A stretch of 64,000 nucleotides of DNA from a phage, in the sequence record NC_135728.1. One strand, given 5' to 3'. Below the pieces are notes generated by a model. The model worked only from the letters and a program-made list of their open reading frames with translations, did not search any database and was not told the DNA's origin. Of the stretch, positions 44,272-60,274 are shown piece by piece. Positions within the stretch are counted from its first letter, which is position 1. Every line of letters begins with the position of its first letter. The translations under genes and the position numbers were made by a program.

Positions 44272-45255
44272 ATGATGACAAAGTTAACTCTTGAGCAAAT
44301 TTTAACACTAAAGCAACAGGGATACACTAATAGACAAATTGCTCGTGAATTTTTAGGCCGTGAGTCACGTGAGAGCTGGATCCGACTACAGCTTAAACGT
44401 GCACAAGAGAATATGTCAGAGATTGTAGGAGAAGCAACGGAGCGCTTCCTTGAAGAACACAAAGGTGCTAAAGTTTGGGTGTATGATACAGAGACATCCC
44501 CAACAAACGGCTGGTTCTTTGGGCACTATAAGACCAACATTCAAACCTGTGGTATTGAAGTTATGCCCTATATGCTAACTTTCGCAGGTAAGTGGTTAGA
44601 CAGCCCTAGTGTGGTTGACTGCGCTCTTCCAGATTACAAAATGTGGGATGAAGATATTCACAATGATCTCGAATTGATTCAGGATTTGTGGTATTATCTG
44701 GATAAATGCGATGTCGCAGTAGCCCACAATTCAGGTTTTGACTGCGGGTGGGCCAACCAACGATTTGCATTTCACGGGTTGCCTCCAACAAGCCCCTACA
44801 AAGAGGTTGACACCCTTAAAATGATCAAGAAGGCATTCCGTTTGAATGCAAACACTTTGGAGTATGCATGCAAATACTTCCAACTGGCCAGACAGAAACT
44901 GATTGATCACACATTTGAAATGTGGATCAAGTGTGTCCATGGCGATCTTGAGGCATTTAAACAGATGCGGGAGTATAATGTTGGTGATATCCTGTCTCTG
45001 GAAGGACTGTATTTGCTGGCTCGCCCGTTTGCTAAGCAGCACCCAAACATGTCATTGTACTACCAGGACGAGGAGCCAAAGGTTCGTTGCCCACGCTGTG
45101 GTGGAGAACACTTTCACGAGGAAGAAGCTTTGGCATATACTCAGCTGAGTGCATTTAAAACATACCGCTGCGAAGGTTGTGGATCTGTTGTTCGTGACCG
45201 TAACAACATCCGTACCAGAGAAGAAATGAAAAACACCCTGATTCAGATAATCTAA
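44272..45255 (+). CDS. DnaQ-like 3'-5' exonuclease with N-terminal HTH and C-terminal zinc finger
   Basis: DEDD motifs VWVYDTETS, VAHNSGFDCGW, YNVGDI; C-terminal CPRCGG...CEGCG. Confidence 0.6.
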   Translation: MMTKLTLEQILTLKQQGYTNRQIAREFLGRESRESWIRLQLKRAQENMSEIVGEATERFLEEHKGAKVWVYDTETSPTNGWFFGHYKTNIQTCGIEVMPYMLTFAGKWLDSPSVVDCALPDYKMWDEDIHNDLELIQDLWYYLDKCDVAVAHNSGFDCGWANQRFAFHGLPPTSPYKEVDTLKMIKKAFRLNANTLEYACKYFQLARQKLIDHTFEMWIKCVHGDLEAFKQMREYNVGDILSLEGLYLLARPFAKQHPNMSLYYQDEEPKVRCPRCGGEHFHEEEALAYTQLSAFKTYRCEGCGSVVRDRNNIRTREEMKNTLIQII

Positions 45256-45263
45256 CAATTATA

Positions 45264-45291
45264 GGGAGGCTTGCGCCTCCCTTTTCCTTTT
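45264..45291 (+). terminator. rho-independent terminator
   Basis: gggaggcttgcgcctccc hairpin followed by TTTTCCTTTT. Confidence 0.6.
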
Positions 45292-45300
45292 GGAGGCACT

Positions 45301-46119
45301 TTGAGCAAGAAAGAGTCCAACGACAAATATTACACAAACCCTGAGTATGCAGAATATCTTGTTGGTAAAGTAAAAGACAAGTATGGGAATTGTGCATACG
45401 TTGAGCCTTCTGCTGGAAGGGGTTCTTTTTCAAAACTATTTTCAAAGATACTGTCGTACGATCTAGTACCAGATCCTGAATTTGAAGGACCAACACAGTG
45501 CATTCAGGCAAACTTCTTGGAGGTGCATCCTAAGGCAGATGTCTTCATAGGTAACCCACCATTTGGCAAGAATTCATCTTTAGCTTGCAAATTCTTTAAC
45601 CATTGTGCATCATTGCTAGAGCTTGGCGGGGCTATAGCCTTCATCTTGCCACGGACATTTGAAAAAATATTTTTTGCAAACAAACTGGACATGTCTATGC
45701 ACCTTGTCTACAGCGAAAGGTGCCCTAAGAACTCGTTTTTACTTAATGGCAAACCTTACGACGTGCCATGTGTTTTCCAAATTTGGGAGAAAAAGGCGTG
45801 CAATAGGGATCCTGTAGAGATTGGAGAGAATAAGTTATTTTCTTTTAGCACTCCGGATGACTACGACTTCTGTGTAAGACGTGTTGGGTATAATGCTGGA
45901 AAAGTATTGGGGGATGATGACCCAAAATCTGAAGAATCGACATATTTCATAAAATCTTTAGTTGACGGTGTTGACAGAGTGTTTGCCGAATGCTATTCTT
46001 CTTTTCAAGAAGAAGCAGGTAAGACTGCTGGAATGAAGAGTATAGGCAAGAAAGAACTACAATACATTTTGGAGACCCGGTATGATCAAAAGCATAGACT
46101 TGACCAAAGAACTTACTGA
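45301..46119 (+). CDS. DNA N6-adenine (amino) methyltransferase; start uncertain (TTG at 45301 proposed; ORF-track ATG at 45271 lies inside the terminator hairpin)
   Basis: Motif I YVEPSAGRGSF and motif IV IGNPPFG. Confidence 0.65.
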   Translation: MSKKESNDKYYTNPEYAEYLVGKVKDKYGNCAYVEPSAGRGSFSKLFSKILSYDLVPDPEFEGPTQCIQANFLEVHPKADVFIGNPPFGKNSSLACKFFNHCASLLELGGAIAFILPRTFEKIFFANKLDMSMHLVYSERCPKNSFLLNGKPYDVPCVFQIWEKKACNRDPVEIGENKLFSFSTPDDYDFCVRRVGYNAGKVLGDDDPKSEESTYFIKSLVDGVDRVFAECYSSFQEEAGKTAGMKSIGKKELQYILETRYDQKHRLDQRTY

Positions 46120-46540
46120 TGCAAAAGCTTTTGGTGAGACAGCGGTACAAAGAGGCCAGGCGATGGGACTGGCACTACCTTTCGTCTTAAAAGAGCACTT
46201 TACAGATTTTCAACTTATCAAAGGTGATAAGGGAATGCTTATCCTGGAGCATAAGTTGAGTAAGAAACGCTACAAAGTTGTTTTTAATTCTAAAGCCCCA
46301 ACAAAACTTGGATTCAGAACTTACAATCTCAACCCATCCTATACTAAGGGTGTTGGAAGGGTAGAACAACAGCATTTCAGTGCTAGAGCTTCTTTAGCCC
46401 CTTTGATGCTAAATTTCTCAGGAGTGGCTTTAGGATACCTTGATAAGAAAAGAGTTCTTCATGTCCGTTTCACAGACTTTGTAACGCTTTTAGCTAACAA
46501 CGAAGTTGATGAAAAGGGACGTGTAAAAACAAACTTCTAA
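46082..46540 (+). CDS. hypothetical protein (152 aa)
   Basis: ORF track. Confidence 0.45.
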   Translation: MIKSIDLTKELTDAKAFGETAVQRGQAMGLALPFVLKEHFTDFQLIKGDKGMLILEHKLSKKRYKVVFNSKAPTKLGFRTYNLNPSYTKGVGRVEQQHFSARASLAPLMLNFSGVALGYLDKKRVLHVRFTDFVTLLANNEVDEKGRVKTNF

Positions 46541-46555
46541 TAACGCATAGTATGA

Positions 46556-46759
46556 TTGGAGACCGCAATGACACTAAAGTTAACAATTCCAGACAGCTTT
46601 TCAGAAAACTTTATCCCAGAAATGATGGGTAAGATGCGATCATTGCTTGATCAGATTGAGGAAGCTGTTTGGGAAGACGATGCTGTAGTGGCTAACGAGC
46701 TAGTAGATAAGTGTAAAAGTATTATTGATGCAGTTGAAGAATACTACGGAGGTTTTTGA
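46556..46759 (+). CDS. hypothetical protein (67 aa)
   Basis: ORF track; RBS GGAGA. Confidence 0.45.
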   Translation: METAMTLKLTIPDSFSENFIPEMMGKMRSLLDQIEEAVWEDDAVVANELVDKCKSIIDAVEEYYGGF

Positions 46760-47373
46760 TGGATATTATTGTTCTTAACGCCCCACCCAGCAGCGGTAAG
46801 GATCACATTGCAGATCTCTTGTTGGAAGCTATTCCTAACTCACACCATCGTGAGGTTAAGGAGATGCTCTTCAGCGTGGCAATTAAGGCAGCTGGTGTAA
46901 CTCCTCAACTCTGGAATGCACTTTATGACCGCCACTACAAAGAAGAGCCTTGCCCTTTCTTAATGATAGACGGCAAGCATGTTTCTCCGCGAGAGTGGAT
47001 GATCCATTGTAGTGAAAATCTGATTAAACCTATCTTTGGTGAAGATGCTTTCGGTAAGGCCGCAGTCACATCCTTGAAGAAAGATTTCCCTAAAGGTAAA
47101 GGGGTTGTTGTTTACTCCGATGGTGGATTTAAAGAGGAGCTGGCGTGCCTTAGTGAGTACGCATACAGCACAGGTGGAGATCTGTTGTTGTTCCGTATTC
47201 ACCGTGTCGGATATGACTGGGGAAATGATTCCAGAACCTATCTAAGTCTGGAAAAGAACGGAATAAAAGGGATTGAGTTCGATGTTGTAAATCCTGAAGG
47301 TGCACCTTGGGAATGTGCATCGGAGATTGTGTGCAAGTATATTGATGCTAAAGAGGCCCAAGAAGAATGTTAA
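46756..47373 (+). CDS. deoxynucleoside monophosphate kinase-like P-loop protein
   Basis: N-terminal LNAPPSSGKDHIAD resembles phage dNMP kinase P-loop (SGKDT). Confidence 0.45.
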   Translation: MMDIIVLNAPPSSGKDHIADLLLEAIPNSHHREVKEMLFSVAIKAAGVTPQLWNALYDRHYKEEPCPFLMIDGKHVSPREWMIHCSENLIKPIFGEDAFGKAAVTSLKKDFPKGKGVVVYSDGGFKEELACLSEYAYSTGGDLLLFRIHRVGYDWGNDSRTYLSLEKNGIKGIEFDVVNPEGAPWECASEIVCKYIDAKEAQEEC

Positions 47374-59740: not shown

Positions 59741-60274
59741 ATGACTTGTGCTAGAAAACCTGATGAACAACGTAACGCATACGATGAGTATGTGACACCG
59801 GAGTGGTGTGCAGAAGGGCTGTATGACCTTATTCCGTTCCCAGAGGACTGGACCTACTTAGAGCCTTGCAGGAATAGTGCCTCAGGTGTGTTCTACTCCC
59901 GTATGCCGTTAGGATCTGCATGGGGAGAAATCCAAGAAGGTGTTGACTATCTGAATACAGAATACAACCATGTTGACTGTATTATCACCAACCCACCATA
60001 CAGTCTGGCCCGTGAGTTTGTAGACAAGGCGTTGAAAGATGCTGACGTAGTTATTATGCTTTTGCGTCTTAATTTTCTGGAAAGCAAAGCCAGATTTGAA
60101 TGGTGGCTTGATAATGCACCTACCACTGTGATCACAATATCTAAGCGTCCATCATTTCAATCAAATGGTAGAACTGACGGGCAAGCATATGCATATTTTG
60201 TGTGGGATAAGAAAAACCGTTTAGACTTGCCGCCATTTATGTGGTTGGCACCCCCAGAGGTAGACCTGAAATGA
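59741..60274 (+). CDS. DNA methyltransferase (amino-methyltransferase, NPPY motif)
   Basis: IITNPPYS catalytic motif; second methyltransferase in the window. Confidence 0.55.
   Translation: MTCARKPDEQRNAYDEYVTPEWCAEGLYDLIPFPEDWTYLEPCRNSASGVFYSRMPLGSAWGEIQEGVDYLNTEYNHVDCIITNPPYSLAREFVDKALKDADVVIMLLRLNFLESKARFEWWLDNAPTTVITISKRPSFQSNGRTDGQAYAYFVWDKKNRLDLPPFMWLAPPEVDLK

Follow-up and report, generated by a model that had tools for sequence, protein, structure and literature searches.

Which DNA mark is written by the candidate methyltransferase encoded at positions 45301..46119 (+ strand) of a 64,000-nucleotide stretch of phage DNA (sequence record NC_135728.1; the whole stretch is called the window here), and where did the gene come from? 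A preliminary description had taken the open reading frame (ORF) at 45271-46119 for the first of two DNA amino-methyltransferases with which the phage would methylate its own DNA against host restriction. Sequence matches of 44272-47373 identify the window as Vequintavirus, an rV5-like E. coli myophage, and the gene and its class already stand in public annotation, as a 'putative DNA N6-adenine methyltransferase' in rV5 (gp096, YP_002003598), as gp187 in Murica and as a 'putative N6 adenine methyltransferase' in the BASEL phage records, which makes that earlier finding an ordinary one. The annotation of gp096 and its orthologs gives no target sequence and no remark on the neighbouring ORF. What is new here is an evidence-based proposal of a target for a mark left unassigned in the literature, together with the tracing of the neighbouring ORF to the nuclease of a cassette; the preliminary description contains neither the GTAC target nor the degenerate nuclease-like gene. 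Taken as a whole, we consider it likely that the gene encodes a GTAC methylase, translated from TTG 45301 and descended from a restriction-modification (R-M) cassette, with a decayed nuclease as its neighbour.

To place the enzyme, residues were numbered from TTG 45301 and the protein was aligned with homologs (48 sequences, 40-86% identity to the window protein). All features described lie on the + strand. The two motifs read in the preliminary description, motif I (EPSAGRGSF, the AdoMet (S-adenosylmethionine)-binding loop; residues 35-43, 45403..45429) and motif IV (NPPF, the catalytic motif of amino-methyltransferases; residues 85-88, 45553..45564), are not there by chance, since E35, P36, G39, G41, F43, N85, P86, P87 and F88 are invariant across the 48 homologs; the ORF itself is real as well. 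A motif X-like DKYYT precedes them (residues 8-12, 45322..45336; D8 and T12 invariant, Y11 nearly so), and they are followed by a C-terminal, presumed target-recognition domain (~residues 165-272, 45793..46116) in which R194, G196, G200, S247 and E252 are invariant family-wide. This order (X, I, IV, then the C-terminal domain) is that of the gamma class (M.TaqI type). A ColabFold (AF2) model built from the 48-sequence alignment was confident (pLDDT 92.8, pTM 0.88), and in a Foldseek search of the PDB it matched the gamma-class adenine DNA methylases StySJI M protein, M.BseCI, CamA and M.TaqI, with a predicted two-domain fold that superposes on these solved members. The protein also matched the PADLOC Type II methyltransferase model PDLC03255 over essentially its full length (E = 1.7e-34; residues 8-253 align with positions 2-249 of a 269-position profile), PDLC03256 at 3.4e-26 and PHROG 5172 ('unknown function') at 4e-129. 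On the strength of the confident model, the Foldseek matches and the full-length PDLC03255 match, the gene is assigned to the gamma class: it very probably encodes a DNA adenine methylase, predicted to be a small two-domain N6-adenine enzyme. The identity first proposed, a DNA amino-methyltransferase, is supported by motifs, fold and Type II model. No Dam match (Pfam Dam PF05869, MethyltransfD12) was found in the protein; PF26055, precomputed for some homologs, was neither reproduced nor named with Pfam; and a BFVD fold search with the model returned no named GTAC enzyme. Other M.TaqI-type enzymes (M.TaqI, M.BseCI, CamA, and the MmeI and HsdM methyltransferase modules) are 421-750 residues long versus 272 here, and M.TaqI itself has negligible sequence similarity to the family (E = 0.2 with the family profile).

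Evidence on what the enzyme may write comes from Bas51 (phage WalterGehring, MZ501111), in which the ortholog, bas51_0200, is 98.5% identical. A 2025 PLoS Biology study (PMC12548924) reported from nanopore data that native Bas51 DNA carries N6-methyladenine (6mA) at GATC, and ascribed this mark to 'the Bas51 N6 adenine methyltransferase', the trigger of retrons Asa1 and Squ1. Its source data list 1405 methylated adenines at GATC, 509 at GTAC and 576 elsewhere in the wild type, and 35, 511 and 349, respectively, in a T83P mutant of the GATC methyltransferase; the text is silent on GTAC and assigns no gene to that mark. Beyond this study, literature searches turned up no restriction-digest or methylome study of the gp096 family and no experimental work on the protein, and methylation goes unmentioned in the rV5 genome paper. 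Counting sites in the Bas51 genome, we found 703 GATC (1406 adenines) and 258 GTAC (516 adenines), so that 1405 of 1406 and 509 of 516 adenines (~99% for GTAC) are methylated. Because methylated counts match site counts, both palindromes are methylated at essentially every site and on both strands; because the GTAC count persists at 511 in the T83P mutant, GTAC methylation is independent of the GATC enzyme. We know of no GTAC methylase in the methylome of E. coli K-12 (Dam, Dcm, EcoKI), and the Bas51 GTAC mark is therefore phage-made. Self-methylation, as supposed in the preliminary description, is in this way borne out for Bas51 at both GATC and GTAC. The gene at 45301-46119 was considered as the source of the GATC mark and rejected: the escape mutations D69G, D79G and T83P fit a different protein, a 177-residue methyltransferase (the protein studied here has Q69, A79 and I83), and T83P takes GATC from 1405 down to 35.

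Apart from the GATC enzyme, Bas51 offers three candidates, bas51_0200, bas51_0070 and bas51_0074. The last is annotated as Dcm-like and matched no model. The product of bas51_0070 (MZ501111 64456-65781, corresponding to L076:16456-17781, outside the window), a further methylase of Vequintaviruses, is a 441-residue beta-class adenine methyltransferase with a DPPF motif that matches PADLOC MTase_III PDLC03636 at E = 1.5e-205 (positions 2-444 of the 575-position profile); no Res partner was noted. Type III Mod enzymes characteristically act on asymmetric sites of 5-6 bp and methylate one strand, so that a 4-bp palindrome methylated in full points to the gamma-class, Type II-like enzyme as the natural candidate; the Mod-like methylase may explain the 349-576 unassigned 6mA sites. 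By this exclusion, and by comparative signals from the gene's relatives, the 45301-46119 gene is probably the one that writes GTm6AC.

The first of these signals is the company that the family keeps. A genome scan recovered 65 bacterial loci from many phyla, and in 18 of them a restriction-nuclease-like gene adjoins the methyltransferase. These neighbours fall into two families: in 13 loci a protein of ~210 residues, a representative of which matches PADLOC REase_II at 3.8e-9, and in five loci a protein of ~165 residues that carries the signature HD...Y-[DE]-x-K and of which one representative matches REase_II PDLC03550 at 2e-12. At the other loci the methyltransferase is solitary or in a prophage-like context. 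A search with the 165-residue family found 255 relatives, and on three marine phage contigs (L083, L087 and L093) the nuclease-like gene overlaps a clear member of the methyltransferase family (hmmsearch 1e-73 to 1e-81). The partner nucleases had no Pfam match (no RE_R_Pab1) and received no enzyme name from Pfam, PADLOC or NCBIfam; their relatives in a large protein search were all labelled 'hypothetical protein'. From phages to Chloroflexota the methyltransferases have a conserved recognition domain, as would suit a single simple target common to all.

The same loci were examined for GTAC avoidance. All four viral contigs that carry an intact member of the partner-nuclease family are nearly free of GTAC, with observed over expected counts of 0/28.8 (L087), 7/34.2 (L083), 0/71.0 (L091, giant-virus-like) and 8/27.7 (L093), the expectations being taken from a second-order Markov model without matched control contigs. 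On three of the four, no 4-bp palindrome is avoided more strongly than GTAC, which ranks second in avoidance on the remaining contig. At the bacterial loci with either nuclease partner, the pooled ratios for GTAC are 0.49 and 0.51, the lowest of 16 palindromes, against 0.81 at the other loci. GTAC is also the most depleted 4-bp palindrome of the window (0.56; the Bas51 genome as a whole gives 0.59), and in 50 kb sampled from K-12 it lies outside the six most depleted. As read from these sequences, avoidance connects the cassette with GTAC.

Some of these contigs have further features of their own. On the marine phage contigs L087-L090, the nuclease-like gene and family methylase are directly followed by a small Dam-family (PF05869) methylase, and the same trio of functions is found dispersed in Vequintavirus. 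L091 and L092 (JGI Ga0209534_10000160 and an ENA contig, 20 kb each) carry rhodopsin, RING, SWIB and fatty-acid desaturase genes in the manner of giant viruses; the nuclease-like family member there has 222 residues, and no methylase-family member occurs within the 20 kb. L091 is also strongly depleted in CTAG and GATC. On L083, GGCC is wholly absent (0 versus 35.8 expected) alongside the GTAC depletion, which suggests pressure from a second restriction specificity. At two enterobacterial loci encoding a 35-37% identical methylase homolog (L034, Leclercia tamurae NZ_JAMHKS010000078, 12.8 kb; L043, a Pseudescherichia metagenome-assembled genome), the 8-bp palindrome CAGTACTG, with GTAC at its centre, is present in 32 and 21 copies, ~0.2 being expected in 12.8 kb. 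These CAGTACTG-rich loci had no megablast match in the phage collection, and neither the window nor Bas51 contains CAGTACTG.

We then asked what stands in the place of the nuclease in the window. The 3' end of the methyltransferase gene is overlapped over 38 nt by an ORF of 152 codons at 46082..46540 (+; PHROG 9938, unknown function), which has its own ribosome-binding site (RBS) GGAG at 46071..46074, annotated in Murica. Its product had no Pfam match and only five relatives among 1.84 billion representative proteins. The reading frame is conserved intact in Vequintavirus, and the Phapecoctavirus counterpart (30% identity, pairwise E = 2e-13) adjoins the methylase on the opposite side, the gene order being reversed. 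A profile of the six members aligned in hhalign with the nuclease-like family (probability 94.4%, E = 9.2e-8, 108 columns) and with the five bacterial partners (96%, E = 4.3e-9), and against the methylase alignment, as a control, it gave 0.2%. The family profile was needed for this result, as the window ORF sequence by itself gave no significant alignment with the nuclease family (3-5%). A separate MAFFT merge reproduced the anchors of the alignment, a Y and the PS..G.GR block (residues 85-93, 46334-46360). At the nuclease family columns D67, D/E77 and K/R79, which all 49 members conserve, the residues of the phage ORFs are L/M/V/S, K/R and V/H/F, and they lack the invariant DGR and E of that family as well, leaving ORF 46082-46540 devoid of the catalytic D...(D/E)-x-K triad. 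Its product is thus likely to be a catalytically dead, remote homolog of a PD-(D/E)xK nuclease. Given the homology to the nuclease family and the replaced catalytic columns, the locus resembles a Type II M-R cassette in which the R gene survives as an intact frame but is predicted to be non-catalytic.

These observations have to be set against other readings of the gene. Its product might be an active N6-adenine DNA methyltransferase with a target other than GTAC, the GTAC mark of Bas51 being made by the Mod-like bas51_0070 while this enzyme accounts for the 'other' 6mA sites or for a rarer motif. Bas51 does possess this third adenine methyltransferase with its DPPF motif and does carry those additional methylated adenines, and experiment has assigned GTAC to neither gene. 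Methylation of ~99% on both strands of a 4-bp palindrome is, however, unlike the asymmetric one-strand pattern of a Type III Mod, and the family in question recurs beside a nuclease family whose carriers are nearly free of GTAC and retains one recognition domain from phages to Chloroflexota, as a single simple target would have it; we regard this alternative as unlikely. A good deal less probable still is an RNA methyltransferase comparable to METTL5, PH1948 or the Erm-type enzymes, one that would place m6A in, for instance, rRNA or tRNA of the host and so retune translation during infection. Such RNA enzymes superpose on the model over the ~150 residues of the Rossmann domain only, whereas TaqI-type DNA methyltransferases superpose over 226-254 residues including the second domain, which aligns with DNA recognition domains and is not what is seen for COG2263/PH1948, METTL5 or Erm/KsgA. 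The full-length match to a Type II DNA methyltransferase model, the repeated presence of restriction-nuclease-like genes next to homologs, and a phage-dependent GTAC mark in DNA, for which some enzyme is required, likewise speak against an RNA target. We give similarly little credence to the notion that the gene is a relic of a decayed R-M cassette, without consequential catalysis. The loss of catalytic residues from the adjacent nuclease homolog and the ready restriction of Vequintavirinae in the laboratory would suit a relic, but the catalytic and AdoMet-binding residues of the methyltransferase are all intact and invariant, the gene is conserved (protein identity is 93-99.6% across 120 records of Vequintavirus and ~53-54% for the listed records of Phapecoctavirus and related phages) and gives a confident model, and GTAC is fully methylated in phage grown on K-12.

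Several points weigh against the reading of the locus as a GTAC methylase with a decayed cassette nuclease. The link between gene and GTAC is drawn solely from exclusion and comparative signals; the Mod-like methyltransferase of Bas51 was set aside by enzyme type only, and the 349-576 'other' methylated adenines belong to neither GATC nor GTAC. Compared per locus, GTAC depletion at bacterial R-M loci did not differ significantly from that at the other loci (Mann-Whitney p = 0.09), for which reason the viral contigs were relied on instead, and avoidance on those contigs could reflect host enzymes. The homology of the neighbouring ORF to nucleases depends on a shallow profile of six sequences. 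As to the enzyme itself, the Pfam matches are below threshold (Eco57I, PF07669, 16.5 bits versus a cut-off of 25.3; MTS, 15 versus 23), and it had no NCBIfam match and no sequence match in the PDB.

The sequence of events that the GTAC reading proposes is as follows. Translation would begin at TTG 45301, probably coupled to that of the overlapping downstream ORF, and yield a small monomer-type enzyme that would bind AdoMet through its EPSAGRGSF loop. The C-terminal recognition domain would present the target adenine, which, judging from the fold, would be flipped into the NPPF pocket as in M.TaqI-type enzymes. Each strand of GTAC would be methylated on replicating phage DNA, giving packaged DNA that, by comparison with Bas51, should be ~99% GTm6AC. 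The methyltransferase would descend from a Type II R-M cassette, its family in bacteria and marine phages adjoining or overlapping a PD-(D/E)xK nuclease-like gene, and the downstream gene at 46082-46540 would be a diverged copy of this nuclease that has lost its catalytic residues. Three steps of this scheme are inferred: the attribution of the GTAC mark to this gene and not to the Mod-like one, protection by the mark at GTAC-containing sites, and the loss of activity in the nuclease homolog.

The translation start of the gene had been a further point of doubt, and can be placed firmly at TTG 45301. The mechanical ORF runs over 45271..46119 (+), with 282 residues counted from 45271, where the codon is a TTG and merely the first start-type codon in frame. 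A terminator-like hairpin with a T-rich tail occupies 45263..45292 (+) at the 3' side of the DnaQ-like exonuclease gene: the stem AGGGAGGC and GCCTCCCT (45263-45270 and 45275-45282) encloses the loop TTGC and is followed by TTTTCCTTTT, with an RNA fold of -19.3 kcal/mol (z = -1.97). The stem is unchanged in six relatives while its flanks vary, and a terminator is annotated at the equivalent position in the Murica record, as is an RBS. TTG 45271 falls within the hairpin loop. The position that the preliminary description gave for its first start codon, inside the terminator hairpin, is therefore right, although the codon is TTG and not the ATG it named; its preference for TTG 45301 with a GGAGG RBS was well founded. 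A Shine-Dalgarno GGAGG (45292..45296, +; annotated as an RBS in Murica) lies 4 nt before TTG 45301, from which the coding sequence runs for 272 codons to the TGA at 46117-46119. The annotated starts in rV5 (gp096), Murica and the BASEL records are all equivalent to 45301, and the metagenome homologs start at the equivalent point too. HMD-6 and VB-EcoM-WM have 1 nt inserted in the T-tract that separates the hairpin from GGAGG; this shifts the hairpin TTG into another frame and rules out a start at 45271, and the sequence is conserved from GGAGG onward. In the Phapecoctavirus ortholog (phage nieznany, 54% identical), an in-frame TAA is followed by GGAGG-N4-TTG AGC AAG, which reproduces both the layout and the MSK N-terminus of the window gene. 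Annotations, indel and upstream stop together settle the start. No sigma-70-like or other promoter-like site was found in 45263-45300, between the hairpin and the RBS of the methyltransferase, so transcripts must read through the hairpin from the exonuclease gene; this dependence would hold the methylase level low relative to that of the upstream exonuclease.

The second methyltransferase named in the preliminary description, at 59741..60274 (+; 177 residues), exists as stated and is 99% identical to Bas51 bas51_0176. The count of two holds for the window; Bas51 adds the Type III Mod-like methyltransferase and the Dcm-like gene. The protein belongs to PHROG 799, with weak Pfam matches to Dam and EcoRI-methylase-like families, and bas51_0176 has been shown experimentally to be a GATC adenine methylase and retron trigger (PMC12548924). 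The Bas51 enzyme is toxic when expressed alone. Since it triggers retrons Asa1 and Squ1, the GATC methylase, a possible shield, is at the same time a liability. Close paralogy of the two window methyltransferases was considered and rejected, as BLASTP gave E = 0.033 and they have the NPP[FY] neighbourhood alone in common. Like the T4 and P1 Dam enzymes, bas51_0176 resembles the proposed GTAC enzyme as a phage-encoded adenine methylase acting on a 4-bp palindrome at nearly every site in virion DNA; it differs from the 45301-46119 protein in belonging to another family and in its target, GATC.

The stretch at 44272-47373 matches 120 phage records, with 97.8-99.4% identity to Vequintavirus genomes among the matches listed (MiataMamis being the best). 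The methyltransferase gene sits in a replication and nucleotide-metabolism block, with the DnaQ-like exonuclease gene (44272-45255) upstream, and small ORFs and genes for a P-loop NTPase, a HAD-like protein and ThyX downstream. The exonuclease ends in a C-terminal CxxC...CxxC zinc ribbon, with several weak zinc-ribbon matches that include Lar_restr_allev (restriction alleviation; 17.7 bits, under the cut-off). Twenty GenBank records titled 'Campylobacter phage' also match 44272-47373. The eight of them that appear among the matches listed (MG0656xx, host C. jejuni) carry no annotation and share 97.8-98.3% identity with the window stretch, and their host attribution appears doubtful.

The proposed product, GTm6AC, is that of the GTAC 6mA methylases M.HpyAXII, M.PabI and M.CviQI, with which the window enzyme was compared by description only. 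Known GTAC methylases are ~15-18% identical to one another. M.HpyAXII from H. pylori is also of the gamma class, with its catalytic Asn at residue 87 versus N85 here, and it outlives its nuclease in most strains; it is 331 residues long and has a PabI-type glycosylase as its partner, whereas the partner of the window family is PD-(D/E)xK-like. Solitary methyltransferases derived from R-M systems likewise combine an intact methyltransferase with a degenerate cognate nuclease. In those the nuclease is lost; here the degenerate nuclease gene is not a pseudogene, and remains an intact ORF with its own RBS.

An anti-restriction role, as put forward in the preliminary description, is plausible. The mark would shield phage DNA from nucleases that recognise GTAC, alone or within a longer site: cleavage by RsaI and by R.HpyAXII/PabI-type enzymes is blocked at GTm6AC, as is that by KpnI at GGTACC. 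To our knowledge, none of the R-M systems EcoKI, EcoCFT_I, EcoRI, EcoRV, EcoCFT_II and EcoP1_I recognises GATC or GTAC. That Vequintavirinae were 'exceptionally susceptible' to these six systems in the BASEL tests thus speaks neither for nor against such a role. What the nuclease homolog contributes is a matter of speculation: it might bind sites, regulate the methylase or interfere with nucleases of the host. One rather improbable scheme is that rV5-like and phAPEC8-like phages have domesticated a GTAC R-M cassette, in which the methylase marks the genome and the dead nuclease is kept for GTAC recognition or for pairing with live subunits, as a dominant-negative poison, as a site-masking shield against host GTAC enzymes, or else as a partner that gives the methylase specificity or regulates it. 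If true, this would add to the methyl mark a further anti-restriction layer, one made of protein and taken from the opposing enzyme itself.

Vequintavirinae rank with the E. coli phages that are isolated most often, and they are used for typing and as candidates for therapy. Matching each mark to its gene predicts the host enzymes that such phages can evade (GTm6AC would cover 6-bp sites of the KpnI, ScaI, BsrGI and BsiWI type) and the methylation-sensing defences that they may set off, as the sister GATC methylase does with retrons; it further accounts for anomalies met in restriction maps and in nanopore base-calling. A specific candidate gene is now offered for the Bas51 GTAC mark that the published data left without one, and the intact, catalytically stripped nuclease homolog beside a methylase in two phage subfamilies provides a handle on how phages recycle R-M cassettes.

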